Assembly (NCBI GenBank): GCA_030704615.1
Contig: CM060734.1
Span: 45,880,001 to 45,944,000, forward strand
Reading direction: 5' to 3'
From: Takakia lepidozioides
Taxonomy: Eukaryota > Plantae > Bryophyta
Length of the DNA: 64,000 nucleotides
In this document: positions 21,476 to 61,627 of the stretch, in pieces
Numbering within the stretch: the first letter of the stretch is position 1
How the letters are laid out: every line of letters begins with the position of its first letter
Notes under the pieces: generated by a model
What the model was told of the DNA's origin: nothing
What the model saw: only the letters and a program-made list of their open reading frames with translations
The model's database searches: none
Position numbers and translations under genes: made by a program

Positions 21476-24400
21476 TCAGCGAGAAGAAGGATTAGAGCAC
21501 TGCTGCATTTTCACCAAATGAGCGTACGACCCATTTCTACGTTGCATTAGAGCCGTGTGGGTGCCTTGCTCTACAATGTGCCCCTTTTCAATAACTACGA
21601 TTGTGTTGGCGGACCTGACTGTGCACAGGCGGTGAGCGACGCCCACAGTGGTGCGTTTGCTGCCCATCACGAGGCGGTCCAGTGCCTCTTGCACTATGTG
21701 TTCTGACTCCGCATCAAGTGCACTTGTGGCTTCATCAAGCAACAAAATGGGGGGATTCTTGAGAATAGCTCGTGCAATGGCAATCCGTTGTTTCTGGCCG
21801 CCTGAGAGCTGCACGCCGCGTTCACCCACCTATGTGTGATCCCCAAACATCCGAACACACAGAATGAGAATCACTTACAACTTTAGACATTATAGCCCTA
21901 ACTTGGAAACTATGAAACTATGTGCATTTGCTGATTTGGCGGCGTCGATCATTTCGCTTTCTGATACTTGCTCATTCCCATAGATGATATTTTCACCGAT
22001 GCTTGTTGCAAAAAGTATTGGCTCCTGCTGGACAAGACCTATGTGCTTCCTCAACCATCTAAGGTTAAAGCTTTTCAAATCTCTCCTATCGATGGAGACA
22101 GTACCAAAGGAAGGATCATAAAACCTCTCTATAAGTGCAATTATTGACGACTTTCCAGAGCCGCTGACACCCACTAGGGCAACAGTTTTTCCAGGCTAAA
22201 CTGTCAGATTGAATTTTTGGAGAACCATCACCTTTGGCCTGGATGGATATCGGAAGTCGACATTTCGAAACTCAATACGACCTTCAATGTAGTCTAGCTT
22301 GTCAGAATACACACTATCTGGGTCCATCTCTGTGTTACGGTCGACGAGTGCAAACACAGCCTTCAGACCTTGCCCAACTCTCACCAAAGCAGGGATAAGG
22401 GTGACCAACTCAGTGAGAGAGACGGAGGTATTCATAAGCACGTAGAAAGCTCTAAAGCTGTGCAAGAAATCAGAGTAATTGCGTCTGATGGAAATTGCCA
22501 CGAACCAACAGCCTATCGCACCAGCAATATTTACAGCAAACACTGTAACAGCAAACATTGCCCCATTCCTCATACTTCCAATTTTGCTCTTGCGTAGGGG
22601 CTCTTCCAATTTGGCACTTAGAGTTGCAAGGATCCGATCCTCAGCGACATACGAGGCAACAGTGCGAATGTTGGTAACAGCTTCTGATGCCACTGTGATA
22701 GCTTCTTCCTGGGCATTTCTTTGCTCTTGGGCATACCCAATTGCTCTGGTCATCTACAATGACGAAACAAGATAATGTTAATAAGGGTTGTGTTGCTCCA
22801 TTGTTCGAAGGTGTTGATGATCCACTTAATATACATACACACAAGCTGTTTGATCGCCACATAAAACTTGTGTTGATAACTGGTCGCTGCATAACTGATC
22901 TCAAAAATGGATGATGGAAAATAATATTGCAGTTTATAGGTGAACCTGAGGAGGTATAGAGTATGAACTTAATCACATAATTCAAAGAAGATCCGGCAGG
23001 TAAATGCAGGGTTGACTGGACCAAAATGGACGTTACCGGCACAGTTTTAGATGACTGCAATTGATGGTGTCATCAATTGAATTTGAATTAACTCATTAAA
23101 ACCAGAAAATATATATGTCATTGGATTCCTAGCTTCAATACGCACCCACAGCACTTCTCCAATCATGAATCCGATAAGAAATGACTCTGCTATGGACTTT
23201 TGAATACCGTCATTGTGGACTATTACCACAGTGAATGGAATTACAATGGACTCAAGTTCTCATATGTGCCATTGGTGAATTCCACTGAAATTTGGATATA
23301 AGGTGGCCATTTTGGTCTACATCATAGGTATGGATTTAAAGTGGCAAAATCATTTGTCATTTGACTCATATGGACTAATATATGTAAAACAAAATAGACG
23401 TTTTTTGAAAAGTCGATAGCTCATCTTGTTTTTTGGATTTTGGGTGTCAATTTTTTTCTAGAGGTATAAAAACCTATAATCTTCAATGGCTAGGTGGCAT
23501 ATTGATTTTTTTTTTTTGTAAAATCTAATTTTTAGTTTTTCATGATTTCTTTAAATAAAAAAAATTAAGTATTTAATAAATTATATCTTTAATATTTGGG
23601 GTGGGACTCTTTACTAAATATGTTCAATATACCATTATCTATCACTAAAATATATATTTTGGATAGTATCCTTAACTTTTGTTTTTTTGGTCATGGACTT
23701 TCATGGCCGTTTTTGGTCCACTCAACCCTGCAACTGCCCCGACACAGTTCCCTCAGGTCTAAGGTTCATATATATAATCTTGTTCAAGAAGAATACGTAC
23801 CTGTCCAAAACCTCCAAGAAGATAAAGAGGCATTATGGCACAAGTGACTAGTGCGACTCGCCATGCTGTAATCAAACTGAGAGCAAGTGCAACAATTAAA
23901 GATGACATCTCTTGAATAATTGATGCGAGACGGTCGCTAAGGACTGTTTTGATGAGCGCCGCATCGGATGCCAGACGTGAGGTGATGGCAACAGTGGTGT
24001 TCTCGTCTCTATCAAACCACCCCACCTCATTGCGCGTAACCACTAGTCATGCATGTGTCACAGCCCAGTCAATATGAATGCGTACAGACATGAATCCCTT
24101 CAATATCTATATCTATTGACTCCAAGTTACATTGCAATGCAGAGAAACATTGTATAGGGAAACTCGATATTCTAGAGCTCTTGAAAAAAAACTTTACATG
24201 ACATGTACTCAAATGTGTCATGAAGTTCCGAAGTCTTACCTAAGAAAATCTTCTCACGCACACTCTTGGTAACTTTCTGGCCAATGATTCCCAAAAAATA
24301 GTGCTGCACTGTACTTGTTAATATGACTGCAATCCCAATACACACATAACCCAGCGAGAATTGGTTGACTATCTTGTTCATAGTTGTTGGTTTGGCATAT

Positions 24401-27400
24401 GCAACTGCAATTCTTATCATAAAGTATGAGTACAGTGGTCTGGCACCGCCAGTCAATATTGCCCCCATGACACCAAACAAACCTTGTGGCCAATAACGTA
24501 AACTTAATCTCAATATGCGGAGAAGTGGCGAAGTTGTTGTCAATGGTGTTGGCTCTGTGTACATAAGTTTGCTCGTGGAGATTTGACGAGCCGCGGCCAT
24601 GTCCGCACTGTTTGGCTTATACTCTTCTCCAAAAACCATGGGGCTTGAAGTACCAGGATAGATTTCTTCCGAGAGGAAGATGTTGTCTATATATGCAAGA
24701 GATCCCAGCACATGAGCCGGTGACCATGTTGTGCCCATGACTGTTGATGAGAAACTCATACCGTATATGTATGGTGAAGGTGAGTCTGGGATAGGAGAAC
24801 TTGCGACAGAACTAGATTGATACTTGGGTTGGGAGATAAATTTTTGTTGATTCAGTCCTCTGCATGCATATCAGGAACAATCGTCACGCATGTACTGGAG
24901 CCCAAAATAGGAAAACCGGCCCATTGCATGTTCGACTTTCATGTGCACCATCTTCACATAGAAGGATACTAGATACCATGATGTAAACAAGAGTAATAAA
25001 GAAAAACTTGATGTCCATGTCCTGAAAATGGAGACAAGGATATAGATAGAATAGCCTATCGATCGAAAAGTGAAAAGGTTAGTACTGTAGAAAACAGTAT
25101 TAAAGCATTTGAAAAATATTTGTAAGGCAGACTAGCTTGGCCAATCAATTTACCTGGAATCTTGGGTACTGATGGATGGAATATGGTCAGGGGCCTTGTC
25201 CTCTCCTTGCAAGCGAATCATACTAATGTACATGCTACTACCTGCTTCTTGTGCCATGAGCTCTACATGTGTCCCCGATTCCACGATCTGGCCTTTGTCC
25301 ACCACTGCTATAGTATTTGCATGGCGAATAGTGGAGAGGCGGTGGGCAATAATAATGGTAGTGCGGCCAAGCATCAATCCGTCGAGTGCCCCTTGAACGA
25401 TATGCTCCGACTGCGCATCAAGGGCACTAGTGGCTTCATCTAGAAGTAGGATGGCTGGATTTTTCAGTAAAGCCCTGGCAATGGCCACACGTTGCTTTTG
25501 CCCTCCTGAGAGTTGAGTTCCCCTCTCTCCAACCTACATTTGTTCAGGTCATTTTGTGGATTTACTCACAAAATCAAGTATGTAATTAGTGGATTTTATC
25601 ACTGGATGATCTCAGGGTTAAACCCCTCTTTCAAACATGGAACAAATTTTTTGTTCTCAAACTTAAAGAAATGATAGTTCAGTCGACTCTAGATGGAAGA
25701 TTTACATTGCCTGCGAGCCAAGTAATTTGTACCTGTGTGTCATACTTGTCGGGTAGCTGCATAATGAAATCATGTGCATTGGCAACTTTTGTAGCCATCT
25801 CAGCTTCTTCAAGGCTTGCATTAGCTTTTCCATACATAATGTTCTCTCTGATGCTGGTAGCAAACAACGCAGGTTCCTGTCCTACAAAGCCGATCTGGCT
25901 ACGTAGCCACTTCAAGTCCAACCTTTTGATGTTATATCCATCTACCAATATCTCTCCTGCACATGGATTGTAATCCGCATTGTTAAGTCCAATGGGTATA
26001 ACTAAAGTTGGGAAGAAGACTTAAAATACAACTCTAGATTCACGTAAGTAGATTGACGTGAAGGTGGAGGTGTTATACGCAATTCAAATCGTCTTATGTA
26101 TTCAACTTGTGTTTACCTCAAGACAACATTAATTACGTAAATAATATGGACCTTCCGATCACTACACACCTTTGACGGGATCATAGAAGCGTTCAACCAA
26201 TGAGAGCACAGTGCTCTTTCCAGATCCACTGCTCCCAACAAGTGCAAGGGATTTGCCTGTAGGAACCTCCAATGAGAAGCCTTTGAAGATAGGTGCATCC
26301 GGACGAGCAGGGTATGCGAAGTGCACATTTCGAAACTGAATTCTTCCATCAACCGCCTTCAATGTAATTGCGTCTTGTTCTGAGATAATGCTCGGTTTCC
26401 GTTTAATGATCTTCAAGACTTTACAAAATGCAAGTCTGGCGATCCTAAATGCCTGCAAGTCTGGTGCTGCGAGTACCAATGACCTGTACATGATGCAACA
26501 TAGCAAATCAGTCTAATTATCTAGCTTTTGTACTTAAGAAGTGCGAGTTGTAACCATACTTGTGAAGATACATGTATGCGCACACGCTCCTTTTGACATA
26601 TGAAAATTCCTGAAAAGTTACTATGCTCTCACATGAGTCCGTGTTTGGTCTGCATTGAGGATTGAGAAGAACATAATATTTGAAGTTTCAAGGAATTATG
26701 CACATGATCTTATGTATTTGTTATGACATGCCATCTCTCAAGTTACTTAATACCATATTGCATTTAATTACGCAAATTGGAAGCAGGATATACTTGGTTA
26801 CATGTTACTCACAAGCCACCATAGCTGACACTGAGGATACAGACTAGAACGTTGCCGGTGCCATTGCGACCACCTCTGATCATACGCCCCCCAAACCAGT
26901 ATAGCAAACCCCAAGAGCAGTTTGTCACACCCAAGATGAAACCCAAGCCCAACCCTTTTGCCAGTCCAGCCTTTTTCTCAATTTGAAGGGTACTGGAAAG
27001 AGCAGTTGAGAAACTGGTCATCGCCTTCATCTCCCCGACATATGAATACACAGTGCGTATTTGGGATAAGGTCTGTCAATCCCATGATAAATTTGTACTT
27101 GTTATCTTGTTCAAAAGATGGGATGGAACTAGTCACTCAAAGATCAGCTATATATATCCATCTCAAAGTATAACATGCTTCTAATCGATACAAATTATTT
27201 TGAGGCCCTCAAAATCCAACAAAATGAAAATATGTGTTCTGCAATCCAGGTAGACTAGTTTCAGTGAAGTCAGTGACCACAAGATGTGAAAGAGATTTCC
27301 AACATTATACTAGCTATCAGCTAACTTATAACTATATTTCAATCATACCTGCTTAGCAATGCCCCCAGCATCAGCATAGGCTGCAAAAGTTTTCTTGCTC

Positions 27401-30400
27401 ATATTCATAACGATTCGGCCATAGATAGCGCTCGATCCGATAAGGAGAGGAACAATGGATAGATTGACCAGTGTAACTTGCCAACAGTAGTAGAAGCCAA
27501 TACAAACTGTGAGAATAAATGCAGCAAGTTGGCAAATGAAGTGTCCCATTTGCATCAAGAGAAGATGGAACGTCAATAAGATCATATATGAACTATCATG
27601 TATATCAATATTTTTCTAGTTCAGATTTTTGTCATGATTCTTGCTCTCCAAATTCTCTTGAGATTCTTGCTCCACCCAGACTGGGCGCGGGGTCTATAGC
27701 CACAAGGCTAAGTTAAACAAACAACGTCGTATGCGTACATCGGTAGTTTGATTTCTTTTTGTCAATGTATCTAGCTCTATGAGATTTTCTTTCTCATCTT
27801 GGGGACAATTTTACCCATTTGTACAGTGACCCCACTTGGGTCTTTTTATAAAACTATGCGGCAATAAGATCTCTTCGATTCTTGTCATGATGTCCAATAT
27901 CACAATCTTGGAACATAAAACTCTTTTGTGTTGATCAATGTCCGATATGACATCGAGCGGTCATGGGTTCAAAACCACATACATGTATGTTGGATATCAC
28001 CAATTATGGCCAACCCAGCTATAAAAGGGGTGTAGCTAGGTCAACGATAACTACTTATGTAATGTTAATGTGTGGGTACTTGGGAGTCCTTGGGAAGGGT
28101 TGGGTAACCGAGTTGCCAAGTTAGAAAATGTCCACCTTCCAATTCCAATGACGAAGGCTTTCCTTGGGGGTCAAGGCTTTGTAAATGTCATATACCACCT
28201 GCGAACATTGGGTATTTTAAAAATTCCATATAACGTAACTTTTACAAATTTAAAAATGTTATATATATATCTATATATGTATGTATCGTCTTAAAACTTA
28301 AATAATTGAAGTATGTAATATTGTAAAAAGTAGGTTGTTAAGATACACCCTTATGTAAAGTATCATATTAGTTTAGTTTATAACGTGATATAAAGAAACA
28401 AATAATGTTAGTTTTAAGTCTTACAATGGAGTAAATTTAAAACCAGACATGCGACTATCATAAACATACCCGTTTTGTAAGTTATGATTCACTGAAAAAG
28501 TAACCCCCTTCAGTATTTGTATTTTTGTAATTAAATGGCTTTAAAGGTCTCTTTCTAGTACATACATTTGTTTGCAGGTGACGTGTTACATCTCAAAGTG
28601 AATCCCGCGAGAGGCTTTCGGGGGTGAAGTGATACCATAAGTTACGGTTGCTTAGGCACAAGGCTTCCTCCTTCATCAGCGGGATTCTATTTTCGCTGAC
28701 GCGGCCGTAGTTTGGGCAACTTGGTGGCCGTAATTTTCCCAATGACCCAAAGGCCCATTATAAGTAATCAATGGGTTATAAAGTAATGCATGGGCTAGAC
28801 CCGAGAGTAATGGCCATGGTAGGGTACTAGAGAATGTACCTTCTCTCCAATGGCTTCTTGCACCAAGTTGATATCAGTGGTGATGTTCCCTAGGATTTCG
28901 GTTGTGTTGGCACCTGTATCAAAGTATCCAACTTCCTGTTTTAAAACTGCCGAAAGAAACTTTGAGCGTAGCCGGGCACATTGTCGTTCGCTAGTGTGCA
29001 TCCAACAAGCAACCTCTGCATCATTGGAACAGTAAAACTCTAATGAGTTTTCTAGGACTTTTACATATCCGCCAGTATTTTAAACTGCAAGGAAATTTCG
29101 AACACCAAATTTCAAGGGCAAAAAATTATAAAGTCGCCAATTGTTAGGTCTCTTGGATAACTAAATTGTTGTCATTCAAGTGTTTAAAATTTGGTTTGGC
29201 AATCCAGTACAACCAGATGTTGGCTAATAGCTAGTCTACTCATAGTTCTCATGACTATGTTGGTCTTGTTGTCTGCTGGCGCCCAACGATGAGATCATGG
29301 AGGAGCTTGAACAACAAAACATTTAATTATATGGAACTGTCATGATTTTGTCGATATAACTATGCATTCTCTTCACTGATAATTAATCTTTCTCAGAAGA
29401 TTTAGCCTAGAAGTTTACTCACCAAGAAATGGAGTAACAAGACCCACACAACCTAGATAAGTCAATGTTAATGCCATCTGCACAGTTACCATACCACATT
29501 ATCAGTGACAAGTGACAAAATCAATATTCAAAGTCATAATTATCTATCTATGAGTTAATGCAGTAAGCCTTGATCAACAAAACTTACGTTCAAAGGGCTG
29601 ACAACATCGGCGCTCAGGTGTGCATTTCCCTCTAAAAGAGTTTTGAGTTTGGCCCATCAGCCTGATGCACTCAATGGTTCACTCTAAAATTCACTGCTCT
29701 TGACCATGTCAGGCACAGGTTTTGGCATACTTTTTGGCTCTACATATCACTTGATTCCATGCACATGAAACATGATTCATACAATTTATCTTTGGCATCT
29801 CGGATGTACCTGTAAGGTGGCTGTTGCCACTGTGCCTTTTTCATCATCTGCATGTTCATTCAAAGAACCAAAGACCTTTCCAAAGATAACGAACACAATA
29901 GGACTCATCACACCCCTACCCACTGCTCCAATTGTGCCAATAAACATGAGCACCAAATCCAACTTGGTTGCAAACGAGAACAACGCGAAGAACGACACTT
30001 TGTTTGGGTCCGACTTCCTTTTACTCTCCTTGACTCTCACTTCATCTTCGTCTTTTTTGAACAACGTAGATAGCATGAAATCTCCTTCTTCATCACATTC
30101 ATGTGCATACTTGTTGTTCACCAAACTTTTAGTACATTTGATATCAACAGCCGCCATAACTGTAGCTTCGTAATCAGAAAGCTTGATGCCTGATGATTCT
30201 GCATGGAAAAAACCGGATAGACAACAAAGTTTAATAAATACCTAGTATGATTACTTGGATGTTGGAGTTCTAGATGCCCACTTGGGTACTGACGGATTTC
30301 AGTAAGAAGGAAATTCACGTAGAAAAAAACAATTTCCAAGTTTGGCCCGGGGCAAAGTTTAAGATCACAAATGTCATCGTACCTTTGTTGAAGTGGACGT

Positions 30401-31888: not shown

Positions 31889-32648
31889 TAAGGATGAGAC
31901 AGTAAGTACTACAATAAATTGCATATTACATAGACAGAGATCAAGATTGTTATTTATAGGTGTTGAATTGCAATCATTACTCACTGTTTACACCCTAATA
32001 TCATAAATCACTGCACAACTTGATTGATCATGATGGCACAGTTTCCATGACGCACAATATACCACGGATCTACCTCGAGAAATTTTGTTTTTTGTGCGTT
32101 TGATGGGATGCCCCCACGCACGAATTTGTCATTACCGATCCGCATCATTTGATTGTCTCCACATAAAACAAATTAAAATTATTTTGTTTAAGTCTGTTGA
32201 TCTCACTATCATAAACTATATAGAGTTAGTTAGATGATTGTGTTTCATTTTTATTTTCTGGTCAAAGAATAAATGAATGTATATTTACATTTTCCTTTAA
32301 CCAATACGACCACTCTATGGCGAGAATTGCTCCCCTGGCATCCACGTGGTCATAAGACAAAACGCTGGCTATCATTATTAAAGTTATCCATTAAATCCCA
32401 CCGTGTTTGACCCTATGATCCATCCCCACATGCCTCTTTGGTGGGCAGTTTGAGCCTACCCGTTAAGTCGAGTAAACTCGGCACAAGTGAAAAAATTGGG
32501 GATAGGACCAGCCTACAAGTAGCATAGCTCTGTGTTACGTGGGAAGATCAACGTGATGGCAACGTGGCCCCGCGTCAGGCTCATCCACGTGTCCAATGGT
32601 GGGGTGTGGGGGCACCGATGCGAAGGGCCCAACGACGAGCATGGAGCT

Positions 32649-33013
32649 TGTCATGGTTTTAGTCATGGTTAACTAGAATTACCTACTTCTAGTTAACTAG
32701 GATATTTTGGATATTCATATTTGTATTTTGTGTGTTGGGACTTCATTTGGTCTCACATGCCAAGTGAGGTGTCAAACCTCACTTGGGACATGGGGATGGG
32801 TTTTCCCTTGTGAGGGTTGAGGAGGGCTCATCTTCTTGTAGTTGAGCCTCCATGAGCCTCTCCCACCTCCATAGCTCTAGGTATTGAGAAAGAGTGTGGT
32901 GAGGGCTTTGTAGGGTGGATTCCCTTAGCAAAGGTACCATTGGCTTGACTTAGTTTATGTGATTGAGTGGATTCATGAGTGGAGTGTTTCCCTTGTGTTC
33001 ATTTTCATTATCA
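32649..33013 (+). repeat. LTR segment A, copy 1
   Basis: TG...CA, 365 bp; about 9 substitutions and 1 indel versus 48921-49286 by manual count. Confidence 0.95.
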
Positions 33014-34249
33014 CTACAAGAAGATGATCTTATGCTTGTGAGTGCGGAGTGTAAGGGTTAGTTTAGCACTTGTGTGTTGAAGAGCTTGGGAAGATAGCTC
33101 TTGTGTTGCAAGGTGTTGCATATATTGCAAAGGAAAATCCTTATGGTGTTAGGGCTTTGAGAGATATTGTTTTGCCCTAAGGAGGTAGAGAGCTCAAAGA
33201 TGGAGCTCTTGTAGATCACAAGCCTTTGCAAAGAAAGGTACTTGTGGTGTTACACCAAGGTGTTGGAGAGCTCAAGAAGGAGCTTGTTGCCACAAGATTT
33301 GCAATGATTGCAAGAGGGAAGTCTTGTGTGTGTGGAACCATGGTTTCTAGGGTTTGAGAATCTTTTCAATGCATTATGGAGTCAATGGTGTGTGCCATGG
33401 CTTGTGGAGAGCAACTAAATGATTGTTAGTACTCATGTCACTATCAATCTAGGGTTAAGCAAGCTCAATTGTGGATGTTGTGGAAGAGAAGCCAAGGAGC
33501 TACATAGGCTTGGGCTTGAAGACAACAAGGGCAAACACTTGGAGAGCATTAGGAAGCTCAAGAGGTTTGAAGGGAAGCATATGGGTGAAAATTCTATCCA
33601 TGATGATGTGAAACCAAGCCTAGAGCATTGAAGAGCTTGGAGCACATGTGAGAGATCATTGGAGGTGGTCTTCATGAAGAAAAGAGATTGTGGCTCAAGG
33701 CATGTATAGCAACTTCAACCATACATTAGCATGTGACAAGACAAGGAATGGGAAGGTGAAGCTTATGTATTCATTCCCATTTGGCTTAAGTTTTATGGTG
33801 GATGGTTGATCAAGCAAGTGATGCTTATGTGGAGCATGCTTCCCAAGTGTGGCTTCCAATTTCAAGCTTGAGGAGAGCTAGAAGGTAAAGGGAGCAAGTT
33901 GATTCCTTTGTGTATGAGGTGATGCATGTGTGGAGCATGTTTTTGGCTTGAGCTTTGCAATTTCAAGCTTGAGAGGAGTGGCTCTTGAGCTAGCAAGTGA
34001 ATGGAGCTTGAATGACCAAGGCTTGAGAGGAGACAAGGCTTGGTGGCTTGCCAAAGGAGGTACAAGCTTGATTTTGAGTTCCAATGAGAAATTGAGCTTG
34101 TTGTGTGGCCAATGCATTGCTAGTTGAGTTGGAGACAAACTTGAGTAGCTTAAGGTGAAGAAGATCAAGGGAATTTGCCTTGGTACCCCGTAGAATTCAT
34201 GGATGCTTGAGGGGATTAAGCATAGAGCCCCAAGGAGCACAAACCCTAG

Positions 34250-35476: not shown

Positions 35477-37176
35477 GTGCCACCAATTGCTGAGGAGAGT
35501 GCCGGTACGAGCACCAGTGATACTAGTGGGTATACAAGACGAGGTGTGCGGTTTAGGCCACCTTCACCTTCAGTGTCTTCTGAGGAAGGTTCAGACTCGG
35601 AGTCAAGAGGATTCTCGCCGAGGGTGCAAGTCATTTCCGTGCCATTGTTGTGGGACACGATGGAGGAGATGTATGGAGCTATCAAGGGGCCACGTAGGTA
35701 CTCTGGAGCTGTAAGCACCATCGAGCTTGATGACTTCATACAAAAGTTTGATAGTTGGTGTGATTAGCAGTCCGTAATCCACAACTGTTTACGCCTTTTA
35801 TGGCGTGGAAGGGGCTATTTCAGCACCTTGAGGGGCCGCCCATGGATGACTACCATGAGTTTAGGCGGGGGCATGAGGTGGAGATTGAGGAATGGCGGAT
35901 GTATTGGTCACCTGACTATGTCTCCATCACTAGAGGCACAAGGGTAGTGGTGACACCGGCAGCTACACCGGCAGCTTCTACAAGCAGCAGTGGGACGTCA
36001 AGTGGAACAGGAGCTGGGAAGTCCACCCAAGCTCCTGCTGCAGCACCAACACCCGTGCCAGCCTTTAACCCAGTTGTGGAGCTCTTCGAGGAGTTAAGGA
36101 GAAACTACCAGGGGATAAAGACAGAGAAATTGCGGAGTTTGCAAGAGTTCCAACGAAAGCCTGCTGAGAGTTTAAGGGAGGCTTACACGCGCATGAGGCG
36201 CTTGATAAACGTAACCCAAGGGGTTACAGAAGCTCAAGCAGTCCAATTCTGGTATGGGATATTGGACAAGGAGCTGAGGAGAAGGGTGCTGGATGTAACT
36301 CTCCTACAAGTAGCCCAACCCACCTTAGCAAACGTGTTTTTGCTGGCAGAGCGGAAATAGCTTAATATGGTGGAGAAGCGAGTGGTCATGGTGGGGTTCG
36401 GTAAGGAGACACAACGAAGTGGGGCTCCTAGCCAAGAACAACCACTACCCCAACGTGCTCAAGGCAACAAAGGGGCTCAGGCGAAGCCCAAGGAAGGACA
36501 GAGAGGATCTCAATTGCAGAGGTCACTTCCTTCATTCTCAGGCCAACAACAGTCGGGAGTGACATGTTGGGATTGTGGAGGACCCCATGTTAAGAGAGAT
36601 TGCCCGGAGAGAGGCAAAGGGCCGGCACAGGCACAGCCTACACAACTACAGTGTAGGCATTGTGGCAAGTATGGGCATAAAGAGACCCATTGTTATGACT
36701 TGCATCCTGAGCTACGGCCAGGCCAGTTCCAAGGGAACAATGGTGGCCGAGGACAAGGCAATGTAGTCCAGAGAGGTAGAGGAGGCAGAGGAGGCAGAGG
36801 TCGTGGTGGAGGTCGTAACCAAAACCAAGGAGCACAGGGTCACAGTCAAGGTCATGACCAAGGCATGGTAGATAGGCTTGCCCAGCTAGAGCATCGTCTT
36901 GCTACCATGGCCAATACTCATGTTGCGCCAGCTCCAAGGCCTGAGGTTCAAGCCCCACATACACAACCTCCTATGCCTAGGGAAGACCATATTGGTATGG
37001 GCTTTATGTGTGGAGCCGCACTTGCAGGACCATTGTATGTGGACTCTGCAGCTGCTGTCACTCAAGCAGCAACGCGTGCTCCTGAGCCAAGAGGAGCGGA
37101 TGTGGATTTTGATCCACAAAGAGGGGAAACAAGTCGGCAGACAAGGCTTCCACAATCTTTGACATTGGCTGAGACA
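35477..37176 (+). pseudogene. Gag with two CCHC zinc knuckles (degenerate)
   Basis: Capsid-like FQRKPAESLREAYTRMRRL; knuckles CWDCGGPHVKRDC and CRHCGKYGHKETHC; RGG-rich tract; stops at 35765 and 36358. Confidence 0.85.
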
Positions 37177-38577
37177 CTAGAAGCATTCGTGTCTTTTCCG
37201 ATTCGACTGCATGTCCGCGACCACTCCGGGAACCACTTGGTAGTAAACGGGACTACTGGAGAGTCGAAACAGACAATGTGGGCCCACGGGGGCATTTCAG
37301 ACGGCGGACAGAAGTGGGGTCAACGACTCCGGAGTCGTAGCAGAATTCCGGGCTATTTTACGAATTGCGTAAATACATAAAATTTGAAAAAGCCAAAATT
37401 ACAAGTGGTTGTAATTACTGCACATGCGACTACAAATTTTCTTTCCTAATTCGATTAATGGAATAAAGATATTTATTCATTAAAGTGAATATGTAGTCGA
37501 CTCAACGACTCCATGAACCACTGCGCATTCATTGCACCCATGACTCAGCAGCACATTTGCTGACGTGGCTTTCACAAAAAGAGGTAAACAAAATGTGGCC
37601 TTGGGGGAATAGATATTTTAATACGTGCTGCCTCCACCTGGCAGAGACAAGGATGCAAGTGCTGCGTCGGACTTGGGGGGACGTGGGAATGGAAATCCTG
37701 ACACGGCAAGGCCTTCGTATACTCACTTACGTGTAGCAGATCGCAGACCCCCAAATGCCTGGAGAGAAAGCCAGACGGCAGTCAATGCATGCACGGTTGT
37801 TTTGCACTAGTTGGGACGGAGTGGGGTGCAGAGGAGGCGTGCTGTGCCCGAGTTCGCATGCCTAGCATCCTGCAGCCGGCGGCTTTTGCACGTTGGGCAG
37901 CAGTACCCTCTGCTGTATGATTACCATTTGTGGTACAGACTCACCGGCCTCCCCTGTCCACTTGGGTCTTGGGACAGTGACTTATGGAGTATGTAGACAG
38001 AATTGCATGTCGCACAGGTACACCAAAATCTCTCATTCGCAAATTCTCGGTGTGTAGGTGTGTGTGTGAGGACCTCAACCTGGCATGGTGCGATGGGTGT
38101 CGAATGGACCCTTCTCTGCGATGGGAGAACCACTACAGTTGAGTTTGTTTTTGCTGAATCATTTGGCAGAGCACTGTGTACACTTCTCACACATCATGCG
38201 CATTTTCTCCAAGAATGCATGTAAAGCGGAGCCATACACGGCATCATTGCAGTGTGTTTCCTTCGCCTAATTTTGAACGAAAAAAAGTTAACGGATCCAT
38301 GTCAGTTGTGTGAATCACTACATCTAGTTGTCTGGAGGATTGTAAGTGGTTTAGGGTTTAACGTCTCAAAGTGGAAAAGGCCATAGTGTCGGATGCACGA
38401 CACGTGTTCATATTTGAAATCAACAACGGCCGGATCTTCACTACAGATCGGGGGGGGTGTGTGATCACACTCCCCTCCTTGTCCTTCTTTCCTCCTTTGC
38501 ATGTCTTGGTCTTTCTCGCTCGTCTTTGTCTTGGTCATGGTCTATGTCCTCGCTCGTCTTCATCTTTGTCATGGTCT

Positions 38578-41500
38578 ATGTCCACGCCTAGTAAGAAGCG
38601 CTCGACCGCCGAGGCAGGATCACCTCCTCCCAATTCTGCACATTCCAGCCCCGCGGTACGAAGGAGCCCCCGCCTGGCTCGACTGAATCCGGTACAGATG
38701 GCGCCGGTGCGAGAGGGAAGGCAGAGCGGTGGGCGGTCTTCGAGTTCGGATTTTGACACAAGCGAGTATAGCATGGGCGACAACGATGAGGTGGAGGACA
38801 GTTCGGTGGAAATTGCACCTCCATCTGCAGAGTCTCTCCAAAAGGTGTGCAAACGGCACAAAACCGCTGCGCATGAGGTGAGTTCTATCCCTACTTGTGT
38901 TCATGTTTTCTGGGCGTTGAGTTCTCCTGAAACTGAAACTGGGATGCACATATCCACAAAGTTGTTCAAACGGATCTCGTAGTATACAGGGCAGTAGAAG
39001 AAGAAGTGTTCTTCAGTTTCAATTTCCTTGCTGCGCCCTATGCAAGCTGGACATAGGCGGTCCTCCCGTTGCAGGTTTTCCCATCTGCCAGTCTCTATCC
39101 GTAGGTTGTGGGAACCCACCCTGAACCGCCCCAATGGCCTCAAGAGGGAAGGAGGTAAGGGTGCTGAAAGGTAATTTGGTCTGAAGATTCTATCATCGTG
39201 GAGCACCAAGAATGTCTCTCGATAGAAGTGGAGCTTTGTTGTGAGATTGGGTAGCATCCAAGTTCTCTTGACATGTAATTCCATAAGCTCTCTCCGAATG
39301 AGTCTGTTGCGGTCATGTCAGGATGTGATGTCCACCTCATCTGGGTTCATTGGTAATAGGAAAGCAGTAGAAAGTCCGTTACGTTTCAATAAACTGTCCA
39401 CTCGAGCATACCAGGAGTTCCCGAAACCTGCAGCTTTGAGCCTCATAGATGTTGTGAGGGCCTTGCCACTAGCCCTTTGGGTGGAAGGGCCTGCAATCTA
39501 TGGAGAAAGATTGTAAGCCTGAATTGTGCCTCGGATTGCAATGGTACACATGCGAACTCTGCACCTAGGATCTGAGATGGAATTGTGCTCCTGGCGCCAA
39601 GCATTGCTTGGAGAAAAGATGACTGTAATGGTTCCAAATTCTTTTCCCACCAGGAGACAGGGACACCAGGTGCCCAGAACTCACAACCATTGATGGTAGC
39701 AGGGCTGACGACGGTGTCAAACAGCCACTTTTTGGTCGGGGGATGCCGCAGATGTATTTGCTTGCATTTGGCGTGAAGGCGGACGGAGGCCGCCTTACCT
39801 TTAGTCAATCTGTCCAAGGCAGTGGTTGCAAAGTGAAACTTGGGGGAGTGGATAACCAGACCTAGGTACCGGTATGATTTGACAATCTCAATTTCCTGCT
39901 AGTTGAAGATGAATCTACGATCAGCCTGGCCATTGAAGACCATGATCTTGGTCTTGCTAAGATTGACTTGCATCCCATAGTCTTTGCAGAACTGTTCCAA
40001 AATTTTGAGATGGCGTTGCAGAAAGACCGGGGATTGTGCCAAAAGGGCAACATCATGAGCGTAGAGGAGATCTGATTGGGCAGAAAATGAAGTTAGGCAG
40101 AAAACATCCCTGAACATGTTTTCAATTTGTGACATGGGGGAGGACATCGTGGAAAAACCTTCAGGTCTACCACTGTGTGCAGAGGGACTAGTTTTTAGGT
40201 CAAGGAAATGTTGCTTTGTCACGTCATTGCACCTGCGTTGGAGTACGCATTTGCTATATGCGTTGATAACTCCAATGAGGCTAGGTCTGCAATATCCTTT
40301 CAATTGAATTGTGTCTGCACCTGCGTTTACCAACATTGAGAGTCTTTAGGCCTTTTGGGGCTCCGTTGCTGGGCTCCGCCATACAGCCATTTGCTGATTG
40401 TGTGAATCGATGTCCACTGGATATGTGCAAAACCCGGATGGATGTTCTGTTTCCTGGTAAGTTTCATGTGGTACTGATGTGAACCCGCCCACATTCTGTT
40501 TCTTCACCAATGAATGGGCTTACATGTTATGAGGACATTCTGTCCCTCTCCTTTTCAGTTTTTGGCACTTGCGCTGCAGGGGAGTGGGTTTGAGGTCAGC
40601 CAATCCATAGTTGTGGTTGTGGGATGGTTTGTGCTCTGGTGACGTTGTGTTCAGTAGGACTACAGCTGATGCACCTTGTGTGTGGGATGTTTTGGCAGCG
40701 GAAGGGGAGTGAAGCTGCAGCAAAGCACTCACAGCCACTACACAATGCCAACCAACACCAACCTTGGCACCCACCCCCTGCCGGATGGTCTCCACAACAG
40801 AGTGCACCATGGGGAGCCCCCCCTGCTTCGGGGTCATGGCGCTGGCTTCCTGATGTTGCCACGTCACAATGGGGGCCTCCCACATCTCCATACGGCCCTC
40901 CCCCCTCCGGCACACATCAGTCACCCCCCACAACGTATGACGGCGCTGCTCCAGATCATGGGGGCAGGAAACGGACATCAGAGCTGAGGAAGGAACGACG
41001 CCATGCCATGAAACAATGGGAAGGAGATGGAGAGGGAAGGGTGGCTGCAGGGCTAAAGTGCCACAAGGTGGAGGTGCATGGAAATGGAGTCATCAATGCT
41101 GGCTGCGAAGGTATGGAACACTGGCAGCGTGATTTGCGTGGCCTGGCATTGCGTTACCTTGACTCAAGCGTACAAGACATTGACCAGCAGTCCCAGAGTG
41201 CCATGTCAACAGTAATAGAGGGCATAAATGGAATGTACGAGTACACACCTATCCCTGCCAATCGTGATTTTATAGTGAAGCAATGTGGGAAGATAATGAA
41301 AGGAGAAAGAGCAAAACTGAAAGATAAATGGACGAAGACTGGTGTGAGGCCAATGAATACTGAACCCGCCTATTGGGATAAGCTTGTTGCCTACTGGGAG
41401 TCCCCTCGTGGACTTGCAAAGGCTGAAGGGATGAAGCAAGCGCGTGCTTGTGTCACGAACCCCTCGCGTTGGGGCCGGGCAGGAGTTGCAGGCCAAGCAG

Positions 41501-43144
41501 CCCGTTTGGTAATCTCCCTCACCCCCTTCTCATTGCTCTTACGTTGTGGCATGTTCTGATGGAAGAGACACCCACGAGTGGGTTTTATTGCTTGTGCAGA
41601 ATTAGTTGTTATGTGATATGCAGGGCAGTGCTTTGTCCATATGCTCCTGGCATTTTGTACTGACAGTGTGTGGATGGGCAAATACAGAAAAGACGCAAAG
41701 CGCGGAGCCCGTCACTGTCCAAGCTCGGGGCGGAGTGCAAGAACGCTGCGACTGGCACCCCATCAGAGTCTGTTTTGAGCCAGGTATGTTTTGAAGTCCG
41801 GTTTCCATTCATGAATCTGTTGTTGTACTAAGATTTGGTGGGTATGTGGGGCCCCCACGCATGGTACAGGAGGGGTGTTATGCCAAACCCAGCCATCTCC
41901 GAATGCCTGAAATCCTGCACATTCGGCCTCTTCTTCTGGTTTTTAACAGTACGGGTGGGTGTTTGTATGCGTAGGGAGCGGAGAACTCAATGGCAGCCCG
42001 CATCGGGGCCCTGGAGAGGCTTGCGGCTCTCTCTGCGGAGCGGGAGAGGGGAATGGAAGCACAACTGAAGAAGATAGTGGAACTCATGATGGGGCAAAAA
42101 GGGGGTGTAACGGGTGGCATTATGGAAGACCCCCCTGCTGCGACCATTGTACCTGACAAGGAGGAAGTAATTGTAGTGGGTAGGGATGTGATAGAGGTCC
42201 GGGCTGTTGTTGATGATATTCACAGTGGGGGGCAGGGTCCACTCGTTGAAGAGGGAGAGGTCCAGCAAGTTGGTGGGGATGACATGGACGATGGGGGGGT
42301 CATTGCTCATGATGGGGGAAAAGGGGAAGCTGTAGGGGGAGAGGGTGGTAGTTTGCTTGGTCCAGGCTGCAGGGGGACCGAAACTTTGTCCTCCGGGGTG
42401 ACTGTTGTCTCCCAACCCACTGAGGTGAGACCCCGTGACACCCCTTCAAAAGCTCCTTTCATAGAAAAGTCGAAACTAATTGTTCTAGACCTGAACGGGA
42501 TCTTGTGCCACTCTATTCCTAACTTTCAGCCCAACCTGAGGCGTCATTGGCCATGGGTGTTGACCACCAACAAGTATGTTTTCCCAAGGCCGCAGGTCTG
42601 TGAGTTTTTAAACCTTCTCTTCCGGTATTTCTACGTTGGGATATGGTCCTGTGCTTCCAAGGGGAATGTTGCAGACATCTTCAAAGTGGTGATGCAGGGG
42701 GTCAAGGGTTCTCCCCTCTTTGTGTGGTCACAAGAGGAGTGTGACCCCTTGACAGAGCCACACCCCACAAAAGGGCCTGCCGTACAGAACTTACAGAAGA
42801 GACTGTCGAGGGTGTGGTCGGAATTTTCTGGATTTAACGAATCCAACACCCTCCTAGTGGATGATTCACCACACAAGGGGAGGGGGAACTCCCCTTTGAA
42901 CATGGTCCATCCATTGTCATTTGATGTCACTGGCAATGTCAGTGAGGGGCCCGATTCAGACTACCTTTTAGAAACAGTCTGGCCCTACTGCCAAGATTTG
43001 TTTTGCTCCAAGGATGTGCGTGTCTTCACAAGCACGCGGAAGCTGACCCCGACTGGCAGCTTGAATGTGGGAGAGGATGGGGTCGTTGGGGGAAGTACTT
43101 CTGCGCCCATGCAGGTGAAACTAACCTTACTGTTTGCAACATGA
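38578..43144 (+). CDS. CACTA-borne spliced gene: TnpA/Transposase_24-like domain, coiled coil and FCP1/NIF-type HAD phosphatase domain
   Basis: Exon 38578-38877 (MSTPSKKR, donor GAG|GTGAGT). 40624-41507 has YWDKLVAYWESPRGLAKAEGMKQARACVTNPSRWGRAG. 42470-43030 has KLIVLDLNGIL, RPQVCEFL, VGIWSCAS, LFVWSQEEC, NTLLVDDSPHK. Exon joining is inferred and the 3' end is uncertain. Confidence 0.7.
38960..40110 (-). mobile_element. 5'-truncated LINE fragment (RT C-terminus and C-terminal zinc finger) in an intron of the CACTA gene
   Basis: LLYAHDVALLA (YADD box), FCKDYGMQVNLSKTKIMVF, YRYLG, RFRVGSHNLRIETGRW, RLCPAC...ETEEHFFFYCPVY; frameshifted. Confidence 0.85.
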
Positions 43145-44668
43145 CATCGAAGCCAAAGTCCATGTTTGTTTTGTTCCCCCCGGATGCCCTCTCACGCAAG
43201 GCTGGCACTATATGTTTTGCAGGGACCACATGTACAGGGAGTGGCAGTGGGGTCGAATGTGAAGAAGGTGGGTCCTGCGCCTAGGACCATAGTGCTACGG
43301 CGGCAGCATTCCGGATTTCCTCCCCGGCAAGAGGAGGCAGCGCCCAAGGTATGGTTGTTCCCAGCCCCTCTCCGCAAACTTACTTGGTTGGTTTCCTTTA
43401 TGGATACACTTCCTGAAGCGTTGCAATGTGTATTCATTGCAGGTGAGCAAGAGGAGTGGGCTGTCCCCGGCACCATCATCACAGCAGGACGTGGTTCCCC
43501 AGGCATGCATTCATGGCTCCTTGCTTTGCCTGGCTGGTTTTTAGTAGGGTTATTTTTGCCAGGAAGTTGTAGTGTGCAGGGTCTGAGCAGGGTGTTTGTT
43601 AGCTTGCTCCGTGGAGGTGTGTTTATATCATTGCAACCACCAGAGTTCATGTTATTCTTATTCGTCTGACTAAACCTCTTTTTGCTGCTGTAGTTGAAGA
43701 CACGTGGGCAGCTTTCCTCAGTTGCCACCCTCAGTGACGAGCTTCGCTTCAAGGTACGTTGGTGCACCGTGAATTTGCTGCTGATTCAGTATTGTGGCAA
43801 CCAATATCGTTTTTGGTTCATTAGCGTGATGTTGTGCATGCATCGTGGTCTGTGTTCTGAGTCTCGCCTACTATCATTGCTTCTCAATTCCCCCTACATA
43901 TGGGTGAACCACTAAAACCAGTAGAATGCATCATAACCATATTTTCAGCTAGAATGCAGGTCAGTTGGAAACTCACACAAACCACTACAAGTGCTCATTT
44001 TTCGTGCTTTCCTACTATAGTGCAACCAACTAGCACAGTGGCAGCGGAGTTGGCCAAAGCAGTCCCGAGATGGCACAAGCACTCTGCGTCTTTCCACTAG
44101 CAGTCGTACCCGTCACTGCCATTGCGTGGGGATGACGCCACGCGTCAACCCACATACTCTCCACGTGGTCCCCGTGGATTCGTCTGCCGGAAGTTGTGCA
44201 GTCGACTTCGCCAGTGGCTGTTGCGACGTCACATGCAGCACTCCAAGTGATATGGCCGACTTCGATGTGGCGTCTTGGGCCCGTGGCCACGCGGCAGCAT
44301 TGCCGCTCGTCGCGGCGCCGCCACATCGGCATCCACGTCCGCATCCATGTCTGCGTCCATGTGTCACCGCGCCCCGGGTGAGTCAGTTCACTCATCCGGA
44401 GGGAAAAGTCAAAGTCAGCCCAAAAGGTCAGACACACGGGCGGCCCGCCTGGTTACGCCACGTGGTTCTTCAGCATTAATTCCATTAATCGCTGAGCAGT
44501 TGTTCGCGCGTCTGCGTCCTTTACCACTCCAATCATTGGATGTCCAACCCAACTACCACGTCTGTTGTAACTAGTCTGTTGTAACTTCCAGTCGATCCCA
44601 GTTTTTTGACTTTTACGACTCAAAATGAGTTGTTACCCCAGTGGTAAATGACACGAATGCTTCTAGTG

Positions 44669-45733
44669 ACAGTGCCAACTATGCCATCGATGGCACCCGC
44701 TCGCCCAAGTGTGTCAGAGGTGAGCCACGAGTTCCATTAGGGAGAGTTGGTATGGCTTGGGATGCCAGTGGGTGGTACTGCAAAGCAAGGTGCAGCCAGT
44801 ACATTGTTGGGGGCGGCTACGGCAATTTACCAAGCTCCATTGTTTTTTGCCACGACAATTGCAATGCCGGGGATGCGGTCAACTGCAGTGTTTAGACTGG
44901 CAGCTGCACTTTGTGAGAGTGGTGATGCATCGGCGCTATCTGTGGGGATAGTGGATCAGGTGCAGTGCATGGATGCCCTGGATTCAAGGGTGAAGACAGC
45001 CACAGCTGCGCCATGGCAAGCGGCAGCTACAAGGTTGCAAGAGTTGCCAGCTAGACCAGCCATTAAGCGTAGTATGGTGACTCCTGGGGTAGTCCTGGTG
45101 GAAAATCAGGATGGTGTGTTTCAGTTGGGTGGCCCAGCCGGGAGGAGGTATAGGCCACTGCGGGTCTTGTTGGACTCGGGAGCACAGCCATTGATGTTGG
45201 GGAGAGGCTTGGGCCTTACAGAGGCGGATTTGGAGCCTTGCCCTTTCCAAATTCAAACATCTTTGGGCGGTTCAGAGAAAGCACGAGGGATTACACGCCA
45301 TGAGCTCTTTATTCGATTGCAACCAAATCATCCTACAGATGGCTTTGTCATGAGAGCTAAAGCCATTGTTACGGACGCAATGTCTTATGATGTGCTTGTT
45401 GGTGGGGCTGTGTTATACCCGATGGGCTTTACTTTGGACTTTTGGGAGGAAACGACATCCTATAGGCCGGAATGGCAGTCCGGGGATGGTCGACGTGCAC
45501 TGCTTCCAGTGCGGTTTATTGGGAATATAGCGGTGGATCATAGGAACATGATGCCCACATTGGCTGCATTCTCAGGGGTGGTGGCTTGGGGTGGTGAGCT
45601 CTTGGAGGGCAATAACCATGTAGATGATAGGCCACCACCTGATGAGGATAAACAATTGGCATACAAGGCTGATTTGCTTCCTCATGTGCCTGTTCATATT
45701 CCACTGTGGGGTACAGTTGGGAATTTGCATTGA
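44669..45733 (+). pseudogene. Retropepsin-type aspartic protease region of the polyprotein
   Basis: VLLDSGAQ (Asp codon at 45173) and YDVLVG flap-distal motif; in frame with gag once the CACTA is removed. Confidence 0.85.
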
Positions 45734-45869
45734 ATAGCAGGCGAGTGTGTGCACCAAGCATGGCAGGAGGCCTATCCATTGGTGAGTGAGGGGAGTTCAG
45801 TGACATCACCTGGACCTCCTCAGTTAGCTCCTTTGGACACAGTGTCCATTACTTGACAACCACCTGACT

Positions 45870-46830
45870 CAGGGATTTGTTTGCTAGACCTGTTTGGAGG
45901 CATGAGCACTGGACTTGCAGGAGTGTGGCAAGCTGGGATTAAAGTACAAAAGTACTTGTATGTGGAGAAGGATGAGATAGCTCGGCGTATTTCTATGCGC
46001 CACGTTGCCTTGTTCATACACCAGTACCCTGAGTTGCTGCCTCTCTCAGCAATTCAAGGGTGCCAAAAGGCTTTGCTAGCAGACATTATCATGCTGGGGG
46101 CGGATGATTTGGACCGGCATGGTGCCATTGACTTGGTGATAGCTGGATGGCCTTGCCAATGACACTCTCCCGCACGTCATGGGAATGGCTTGCATGATGC
46201 ACGATCGTATTTGTTTTGGGAGATGTTGAGAGTGTTGCGTGACTTGCAGACGAGGCAAGTGCAACCTCTAGCCTATATCTTGGAGAATGTTCATCTTATG
46301 GGGGACTCTCGGGCCAGGGTTATGGCCAGTGTGCATCAGGTGCGGTCTTGGATTGGATTGGCGGTGCTATTAGATGCAGCAACGGTGGGATCACGCGCGC
46401 ATCGACCTCGATTGTGGTGGACCAATCTTGCACCACCAGAGCTGCTCAAGAGAGCATATGGTTCCATTCAACGGCCACCCAATCTCACGATTGACGGCAT
46501 TTTGGACTAAGGGAAGCAACCACAGAGGGTGCAACATGATGACCGTCCACCTCTAGCAGTGGTCAATCGAGTGGGGCAGCCACGTACAGCCTTGCCTACG
46601 CTCATGAGCTTTCCCTCGTCTCATGCTTTTCGAGACGATGGTCCTAGGTTGATTTGGGACAGTGTGCTACAGCGATTGGTGGAGTCCAATGCGGATGAGC
46701 GCAAGTGGGCAATGGGGTTTGCCACGGGCACTACAGCTGTGCCAGCTCTGTCAGAGGCATCACGACGCCAGGTGTTGGGTCAGGCAATGGATCTCAATTG
46801 CTTGACATGGGTCATTGGCTTGTGCATGGC
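45870..46830 (+). pseudogene. C5-cytosine DNA methyltransferase domain inside the retroelement polyprotein
   Basis: Motif I LLDLFGGMSTG, II YLYVEKD, IV DLVIAGWPCQ (catalytic Cys 46154-46156), VI YILENV, VIII AHRPRLWW, X RQVLGQAM. In-frame stops at 46160 and 46508. Confidence 0.92.
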
Positions 46831-47129
46831 TGAACAACGGAGATTGCAAGCATTGGTGGCTACTTCTGCACTTCTATTAGATATTGCACCATCTCTGCCA
46901 ACCGGGACGGTGGAGGCAGTGAGTGGAGGCGAGCACATGATCATGGGGTGCAAACACCCATGACAAATGTGGGATGAGATGCGGAAAGAGAGAGTCATTG
47001 GATCTCTCAAGCAGCAATATGAGGAGTGGGGAGAGCCATACACTGAGGATCAGTTAGAGGCCAAGCTGGTCCATCCCATAACATTGGTCAAGTAGATGGT
47101 GTGCATGACGATCCGGAGATCAGTGAGGA

Positions 47130-48576
<1,447 letters not shown>

Positions 48577-48820: not shown

Positions 48821-48833
48821 CTAAGGGGGCGAT
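48821..48833 (+). promoter_or_regulatory. Polypurine tract
   Basis: CTAAGGGGGCGAT lies immediately before the TG start of repeat B1. Confidence 0.65.
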
Positions 48834-49371
48834 TGTGGCATAACTTTCTAGGATTGTGTGCTTAGAATGTATGGTGGACAACGATGTATGTTGTGGCACG
48901 ATGCTTAGGTGCACGACAACTGTCATGGTTTTAGTCATGGTTAACTAGAATTACCTACTTCTAGTTAACTAGGATATTTTGGATATTCATATTTGTATTT
49001 TGTGTGTTGGGACTTCATTTGGTCTCACATGCCAAGTGAGGTGTCAAACCTCATTTGGGACATGGGGATGGGTTTTCCCCTTGTGAGTGTTGAGGAGGGC
49101 TCATCTTCTTGTAGTTGAGCCTCCATGAGTCTCTCCCACCTCCATAGCTCTAGGTATTGAGAAGGAGTGAGGTGAGGGCTTTGTAGGGTGGATTCTTTTA
49201 GCAAAGGTGCCATTGGCTTGACTTAGTTTATGTGATTGAGTGGATTCATGAGTGGAGTGTTTCCCTTGTGTTCACTTTCATTATCATTGTGGCATAGCTT
49301 TCTAGGATTGTGTGCTTAGAATGTATGGTGGACAGCGATGTATGTTGTGGACGATGCTTAGGTGCACGATA
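48834..49371 (+). repeat. 3' terminal repeat block B1-A2-B2
   Basis: B1 48834-48918, AC spacer, A2 48921-49286, T spacer, B2 49288-49371. B1 and B2 differ by about 3 substitutions and 1 indel. Confidence 0.93.
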
Positions 49372-60508: not shown

Positions 60509-61204
60509 TCTAGACCCCTAGAAAGGTTTTGGCTGTAACAATTGAAGAAATGCCTGCAGTGCACAAAGCATAAACGTATGGTTGCCACAAAATGCTATGG
60601 TAATTTCTTTAAGCCTGCAGGGCTTGCAAGCATCGATTAAGAGAAAAAACACTCTCTGTTCTTCTATCCCCGTGCCACTGCGTAAGTAGTATCGCGAGCG
60701 TATAGTCTGTTAGTTCCTCCATAGCTTCAAAGCTATAGCATTGATGGTTTGTCCCGTCGAGACGCCCGTTACTTGGAACGACGCCGACTCTTGCGCTTAA
60801 AATCCCTCCTTTTTCTTGATCCTGCTTCTGGCTTATGATTGGCTGTAACTGCTGCGACTGGATTTTAGATTTAATTTCCTTCCATGAATTTTCCACTCTG
60901 GATTGTCCACTAGGATAACACATGTGACATGGATTTCGCTTTTCGGTACTTTTAAAGGGTTCCGTTACCTTTCCCTGTATGCATTAATGGGCCCATAATA
61001 AGTTAATGTGCCGGGTAGGTACTTTGACGGCCAATTTTGTCTTTTTCCTTGATGACACTTGCCTTTGCAATCCATGTCCGGCTGTGTGTCTCGCCCTGGC
61101 ATCCACGTGTCCATTTCTAAACGTGCCTCCGTCCACTTTTCCGCCGGCCACTGTCCGGATGTTAACCCACGTCCACCTGTCACGGATTCTATGGACTGTG
61201 TAAC

Positions 61205-61505
61205 CCCAGTAAGCTGTGTTGAGCTGTGACAGGCTGTGTCATACTGTGGTACGTTGTGATAGGCTGTGTTGCACTGTGGTAAGCTGTGATAGGCTGTGAC
61301 ACGCTGTGGTAGGTTGTGATAGGTTGTGTCGCACCGTGATGGGCTGTGATAGGCTGTGCCGCGCCGTGTTGGGCTGTGATAGACTGTGTCGCGCCTTGAT
61401 GGGCTGTGATAGGCTGTGTCGCGCCGTGATGGGCTGTGATAGGCTGTTTGACCCTATGTTGGGCTGTGATAGGCTGTGTGACCCTGTGTGGGGCTGTGAT
61501 AGCTG
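61205..61505. repeat. 30-bp tandem repeat, about 10 copies
   Basis: Consensus-like unit GGGCTGTGATAGGCTGTGTCGCGCCGTGAT. Confidence 0.92.
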
Positions 61506-61627
61506 TTCGAACATCTGTGTTCTTTGCTCAGACCATACACAATTGGTTTTATGACAAGTACTTCGTGTTCCGTTGGTATTACTGGGGTAGCCCCTGACTG
61601 TTCCTGTGTTTCAACATGCAAATCATG

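Follow-up and report, generated by a model that had tools for sequence, protein, structure and literature searches.

KnitGypsy-Dnmt3 of Klebsormidium nitens combines Gypsy domains with a C5 methyltransferase and DIRS-like repeats (PMC5890265, legend of Fig. 4c). The 2018 description of this Gypsy-Dnmt3 type and its unusual repeats gives, in the portion available to us, no mechanism of priming or integration (PMC5890265). A 2026 preprint mentions Gypsy-DNMT3 only in passing in its available part. In the open-licence literature, we found no report of self-priming or circle integration of Gypsy-Dnmt3 elements.

Self-priming is established for Tf1, Tf2 and Tj1 (PMC4600332). The Tf1/sushi group includes the plant lineage Tcn1 (bioRxiv 10.1101/2022.12.06.519325, PMC6317226). 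The REXdb table lists self-priming for Tcn1 and TAR only, and a PHD or methyltransferase domain in no Ty3/gypsy group (PMC6317226). Split direct repeats of the A1-B1-A2-B2 type occur in the PAT/Ngaro tyrosine-recombinase elements, and DIRS-1 is described in the same paper as having no known primer (PMC7192593). The integrase of foamy virus is reported to cleave palindromic 2-LTR circle junctions (PMC1180852).

We analyzed a retrotransposon in a 64,000-nucleotide stretch of Takakia lepidozioides DNA (the window). Like KnitGypsy-Dnmt3, it has a C5 methyltransferase in the Gypsy polyprotein region and repeats in the order A-coding-B-A-B, and Klebsormidium integrases are 54-59% identical to the window integrase. 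Unlike KnitGypsy-Dnmt3, the window copy is a deletion derivative without reverse transcriptase (RT) and RNase H (RH), and it lies in land-plant DNA.

Like Tf1/sushi elements, the window element has a primer-binding site (PBS) complementary to a segment of the 5' repeat and not to a tRNA, and its primer lies at the predicted RNA 5' end. Unlike them, its integrase carries a PHD finger (PF00628) and has no chromodomain match, and its split repeats are permuted, with the integrase sites internal to the LTR that reverse transcription would define. Repeat A ends in TTTG in the relatives L042 and L052, whereas Tf1/sushi LTRs end in CA before the PBS. The target-site duplication (TSD) of window-type elements is an exact 4 bp in five of the six testable elements, compared with 5 bp in 100% of cases in the table entry for Tcn1 (PMC6317226). 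Because of the chromodomain, the TSD length and the LTR layout, the window element is not a member of the Tf1/sushi group, although it would work like Tf1 and Tj1.

Other lineages differ as well. REXdb Phygy is listed with a tRNA-Trp PBS and the TSD NCGN (PMC6317226), whereas the window element has no TGG at this place and the TSDs among the elements are AGCT, CATA and TACA. The TAR/Houba lineage, for which self-priming in plants is likewise predicted, differs in being Ty1/copia with ordinary LTRs and a 5-bp TSD in the same table (PMC6317226). The split repeats are shared with PAT/Ngaro; unlike those, the window element has a DDE integrase, TG...CA ends and a 4-bp TSD. When 12 and 3 window frames were scanned with Pfam, no tyrosine recombinase was matched and an rve integrase was found.

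Layout and coding region of the element

Self-alignment and inspection of the flanks gave the layout A1-internal-B1-A2-B2, with AGCT duplicated on both sides (32645-32648 and 49372-49375). Repeat A1 (32649-33012, plus strand) starts with TGTCA, an integrase-type left end, and repeat A2 lies at 48921-49285 on the same strand. In the self-alignment the A pair extends over 32649-33013 and 48921-49286 with 97.3% identity over 366 nt, and the B pair over 48832-48919 and 49286-49372 with 95.5% identity. Base 33013, an A, fits better at the start of the PBS than at the end of the repeat. Repeat B1 (48832-48918, plus strand) ends in GACA. Repeat B2 (49286-49371, plus strand) is fused to the end of A2 and forms the right end of the element. 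A polypurine tract (PPT), AAGGGGGCG (48823-48831, plus strand), lies directly 5' of B1, and the same G-run precedes B1 in relatives. The PPT thus stands before B1 and not before A2, and the PBS stands after A1.

Other readings of this layout were rejected. A1 and A2 are not an ordinary LTR pair, since a PPT is absent before A2 and the TSD follows only B2. A solo LTR inside the LTR of another element was discarded because the same layout occurs in 17 other insertions. An apparent B/B pair in L023 is a different repeat and was excluded ahead of the A-copy search. An exact TSD was not found for L042/L072. The TSD CATA occurs in three distinct insertions (L004, L026 and L053) and TACA in a fourth, a hint of target preference.

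Judged by its sequence, the element is a decayed copy of a bryophyte-type Gypsy-Dnmt3 retrotransposon with the order gag-protease-C5 methyltransferase-integrase-PHD. The gag region (35660-37174, plus strand), with two zinc knuckles, a frameshift and a stop, was recognized from translations, tblastn with P0125 and a match to PF03732 below the cut-off (E 6.6e-4). Protease and C5 cytosine methyltransferase, with stops, occupy 44669-46933 (plus strand; tblastn, and PF00145 with E 6.4e-5 and 23 bits against a cut-off of 22), and methyltransferase probes, one of them from Klebsormidium, match 45875-46837. The Dnmt3 label of the methyltransferase follows the usage in the available part of PMC5890265. 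A DDE integrase with zinc-binding and core domains and a C-terminal PHD finger, again with stops, lies at 47071-48567 (plus strand; PF17921, PF00665 and PF00628) and is 66% identical to P0006. Gag, protease, methyltransferase, integrase and PHD are all broken in the window copy. The closest named proteins are from liverworts, mosses and Klebsormidium.

The gap between the methyltransferase and the zinc domain is 363 nt in the window, compared with about 1,990 nt in the related locus L004. From this gap length, about 1.6 kb is missing at an RT/RNase H deletion junction (46934-46975, plus strand), where tblastx gave a possible 14-codon RT remnant. Among the 80 metagenome loci retrieved with the integrase, RT lies upstream of the integrase on the same strand in 51, and it is present in all 37 that hold the methyltransferase. 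The earlier note had argued from self-priming for an RNA intermediate despite the missing RT; this is backed more directly by the RT-RH of these relatives.

In the public run X1, positions 46963-46966 are covered by 47-51 contigs with a summed depth of about 94,000, compared with about 60 at the unique flank. Among the 12 matches listed of 367 in X1, no loose end was seen at the deletion junction. This hints at a high-copy RT-less gag-protease-methyltransferase-integrase subfamily that moved in trans, where the summed depth is not a copy number. In L059 (6100-10765), a distant relative, the order is RT-RH-methyltransferase-integrase-PHD and not methyltransferase-RT-RH.

The linker between gag and protease holds a CACTA-like insertion of 7.5 kb (37175-44668), foreign to the element, with a 33-nt inverted repeat region at its ends; the P0125 alignment resumes at 44633 (tblastn). 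Its terminal inverted repeats are about 20 nt long and are flanked by a near 3-bp TSD (AGA/ACA). An ORF in the insertion (41975-43144) encodes a NIF/FCP1-like phosphatase (PF03031, E 3.8e-13), and fragments of a LINE RT lie on the minus strand at about 38900-40345.

The predicted primer and its binding site

The earlier note had reported a 15-nt complementarity between the end of A1 and a segment inside the repeat. In the window copy, ACTACAAGAAGATGA (33013-33027) is indeed the exact reverse complement of TCATCTTCTTGTAGT (32828-32842), and the match is not extendable. As a null, dinucleotide-preserving shuffles of the 365-nt repeat were searched for their longest perfect complement to a 35-nt segment at the repeat end. 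None of 20,000 shuffles reached 14 or 15 nt, and the longest complement was 13 nt, in 6 shuffles.

Only part of this match belongs to the family. In contigs of four public runs, base 33026 is mostly C in related copies (summed depth 116,818 of 172,939 in X1 and 137 of 137 in X5). Since most related copies carry this C, the family-wide duplex is 13 nt, 32830-32842 with 33013-33025 (plus strand). The 15-mer is therefore exact in the window copy and shortened to 13 nt across the family, and its first base, 33013, belongs to the PBS rather than to A1. Among the 40 variants listed, with 28 further ones beyond these, none falls at 32828-32842. The predicted RNA start, as read from the sequence, is A32830 rather than 32828, and the RNA would begin with the 13 nt of 32830-32842. 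In X1 and X5, both of them DNA runs, the summed contig depth drops about tenfold some 70 nt past the PBS (33083-33200), which suggests that most copies of repeat plus PBS are in subfamilies with another 5' leader.

A tRNA-type PBS had been described as absent, and this agrees with our results. No TGG follows the repeat, and judged by this missing TGG the PBS does not match a tRNA 3' end as in tRNA-primed plant Ty3/gypsy elements. ARAGORN found no tRNA genes in the 64-kb window. Rfam gave 3 matches in 32600-33300, all far under their gathering scores and none to a tRNA.

The earlier note suggested looking for covariation of the two segments across family members. Eight distinct elements with A1 and downstream sequence were available: the window element, L004, L007, L037, L026, L042, L053 and the reverse-strand element of L052. 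They contain four unrelated PBSs (window; L004/L007/L037; L042/L052 reverse strand; L026), each matching the repeat A motif of its own family, so that LTR motif and PBS change together in three families other than that of the window. In six of the eight elements, the PBS forms 11 or more Watson-Crick pairs with a 13-14-nt motif in the element's own A1 (13/13, 13/13, 13/14, 12/13, 11/14 and 11/14), and this motif always ends in a T that pairs with the initial A of the PBS. In L037, A1 and A2 share a private primer variant, and the PBS carries the variant that matches it. CpG decay could account for part of the within-family covariation.

Duplex energies were compared between families and with 300 shuffles. 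The window PBS reaches -22.1 kcal/mol with its own repeat, compared with -8.2 to -12.1 with the other seven. The number of shuffles that did as well was 0 for the window, 0 for L042, 0 and 4 for L026, 2 for A2 of L037 and 9 for L052. Duplexes were weak in L004 (153 and 21 shuffles) and in A1 of L037 (16). The L053 duplex is not significant (equalled by 66 and 161 of the 300 shuffles), and L007 lacks a duplex in A1, where a 14-nt deletion removed the primer segment. The family specificity is incomplete, as the L042 and L052 PBSs do as well with the L026 repeat (-15) as the PBS of L026 itself. When the sequence upstream of 16 other loci was scanned de novo for inverted repeats, a PBS-type pair appeared only in L042. 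In viral contigs, 13 pattern matches included no relatives.

Four of the six elements have a TATA box 26-29 nt 5' of the primer start, and a fifth has an AT-rich stretch; in the window family, TTTT takes the place of TATA at -29. Primer lengths of 13-14 nt were picked to start at a C|A step, and the initiator match is partly by construction. The covariation over four unrelated PBSs, the position of the duplex at the repeat end and the TATA/initiator spacing in relatives support the self-priming that the earlier note had proposed.

That note also placed the primer segment mostly in the loop of a GAGGGCTCA/TGAGCCTC hairpin. The hairpin exists (32822-32850, plus strand) and straddles the predicted transcription start. 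It is weak when folded alone (z -1.64, equalled by 14 of 200 shuffles), and we rejected it as a strong stand-alone structure.

When the modeled RNA starts at the primer, the mean pairing probability of the primer is 0.77-0.98 in four of the six elements. It is 0.85 in the window, where upstream extension lowers it to 0.55-0.76 and the 3'-most primer bases pair weakly (0.5 and 0.3). Addition of 10-60 nt upstream reduces pairing to 0.00-0.47 in L042, L026 and the reverse-strand element of L052, because a local hairpin captures the primer once the upstream bases are present. In the decayed A1 copies of L004 and L037, the probabilities are just 0.04 and 0.00. From these folds, the hairpin likely hides the primer sequence both in the 3' copy and in RNA that reads through or starts upstream. 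The three-duplex "pretzel" that surrounds the PBS in Tf1-type elements was not seen in the minimum-energy folds of the six decayed copies.

Junctions and the proposed route of integration

The PBS of the window element supplies a replication mechanism for this element type: it fixes the cDNA ends and predicts where the integrase should cut. At the A2|B2 junction, the base preceding the PBS is joined to the base following the PPT. This junction has the exact length in 13 of 17 insertions from families with a PBS; two have an additional G and two lack one base (counted by eye). At B1|A2 (48915-48924), the integrase-type ends TGTC and GACA meet inside the B+A LTR as GACA-AC-TGTC, the predicted internal integrase site. 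The palindromic site GACA-NN-TGTC is present in 18 of 18 distinct insertions, with GC, AC, GT or AT as spacer, and the 2-nt spacer is missing at the outer ends of the element. L005 and L012 have the perfect palindrome GACAGCTGTC. The count of 18 omits L029/L030/L078, L009, L012 and the deletion form in L051/L052/L054 as diverged, without B2 or apparently the same insertion as L058. Duplicate insertions between samples were merged by eye via identical flanks. A pattern scan missed or misplaced the PPT or the B end in about one third of the loci, and the junction counts use self-alignment coordinates.

We propose the following route. Transcription would start at A32830, and the opening 13 nt of the transcript would pair with the site directly after A1. 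The 13-nt primer would be cut off and prime reverse transcription, as in Tf1. In Tf1, RNase H cleavage frees the self-primer. Since the window copy lacks RT/RH, RT would likely be supplied in trans. By the established mechanism, primer end and PPT would define a standard two-LTR cDNA whose LTR is B+A, because the PPT lies before B1 and the PBS after A1. Joining of the cDNA ends would give the A2|B2 junction that is observed; the split repeats are then explained because the primer- and PPT-defined ends fuse. The integrase would then cut the circle at the palindrome GACA-NN-TGTC, inside the LTR between B and A, with loss of the 2-nt spacer. Insertion with a 4-bp TSD would leave the observed A1-internal-B1-A2-B2. 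As in foamy virus, the integrase would thus open a circle at a palindromic junction. In foamy virus, the site is reported to consist of the joined cDNA ends and to serve as an alternative route (PMC1180852), whereas the predicted site of the window element is internal to the LTR, at a distance from the joined ends, and cleavage there would be the sole route.

Self-priming followed by a circle and internal cleavage is our best explanation of the whole, with a probability of about 0.8. Tf1-like self-priming by the family, as judged from the sequence, is the part we hold most firmly and consider very probable. Circle formation with internal cleavage is favored to a lesser degree. We lean only slightly toward the wider view that Gypsy-Dnmt3 is a DDE-integrase lineage that passes obligately through a DNA circle, its cDNA ends carrying no integrase site.

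The circle step has one serious competitor, which keeps the self-priming. A2|B2 may instead come from read-through RNA via an extra template jump between B copies, after which the integrase would trim both ends of a long linear cDNA back to internal sites nearby. We consider this unlikely, though well worth weighing. It would explain the exact length of most A|B junctions, and also a bias in layout: B precedes none of the 8 PBS-adjacent A repeats, compared with 5 copies of A-internal-B-A-B, and no A-B-A-internal-B copies were found among them. Such a bias has a chance of about 1 in 32 if the layouts are unbiased and counts against a symmetric circle; therefore either the cutting is biased or the template jump applies. 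Against the template jump, the junction joins the primer- and PPT-defined ends in every family though their sequences differ, 1-nt junction variants occur inside one family (L013), and the L037 insertion has private variants common to A1 and A2. One alignment column splits all three A1 from all five A2, which is about the chance level. Clean ends at B1 are also frequent, counted by eye in 12 distinct insertions, and L007 has the form A-internal-B and is flanked by a TSD. These could come from one-LTR circles, and B1-by-B2 recombination could produce them too.

Self-priming itself has been weighed against two other accounts. The complementarity may be a regulatory or packaging structure (leader closure or dimerisation), with a small RNA, a tRNA fragment or a protein as the primer. 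The folds fit this to the extent that the primer/PBS duplex closes a large leader domain. However, the duplex ends precisely where the A|B junction places the end of the cDNA, TGG is absent, and the PBSs are wholly different between families yet track the LTR, which a shared cellular primer would not do; we regard this account as improbable. A match by chance or local duplication in a decayed copy, or an element that is a DNA transposon, might be suspected because the window copy lacks RT/RH, is broken by stops and an insertion, and lies in a window with three further exact inverted repeats of 15-17 nt within 1 kb. Yet the position-specific null was 0 of 20,000, three more families show the feature with different sequences, and PPT and RT are present in relatives. 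The cross-family covariation has already largely refuted this account, and very little weight is left to it.

If the preferred route of self-priming, circle and internal cleavage is true, a self-priming lineage is added outside Tcn1 and TAR, and a tyrosine recombinase is not needed for split direct repeats to arise. It would also become testable in a bryophyte whether LTR circles can be true integration precursors, a long-standing question. On the wider view, toward which we lean only slightly, self-priming would have a separate origin outside the Tf1/sushi and TAR lineages, and Gypsy-Dnmt3 elements would offer a natural, obligate example of integration from a circle junction.

Aberrant copies and neighboring sequences

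An LTR finder built around two equal LTRs and a tRNA PBS would probably miss such high-copy elements. The A-internal-B copy in L007 (2545-11184) has no repeats and has TG...CA ends; copies of this kind resemble DNA transposons, and LTR finders would overlook them too. B-only 3' ends were seen in L003, L016, L019, L020, L023, L024, L034, L036, L041, L042 and L049. In L014, L018, L033 and L071, B1 and the 2-nt spacer are followed by unrelated DNA, like an insertion or deletion at the palindromic junction.

Elsewhere in the window, 1320-5773 and 22196-30241 hold what we take, from their translations, to be host genes, namely zinc-type dehydrogenase-like, light-inducible-protein-like and ABCB-type transporter (minus strand). 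An ORF fragment at 9138-9704, far from the element, may resemble a Crypton-like tyrosine-recombinase domain. Beside an assembly gap, the minus strand at 61862-62722 holds a second Ty3/gypsy integrase, a distant one with 31% identity to P0006, and a 10-nt tandem array is found near it at 61183-61532.
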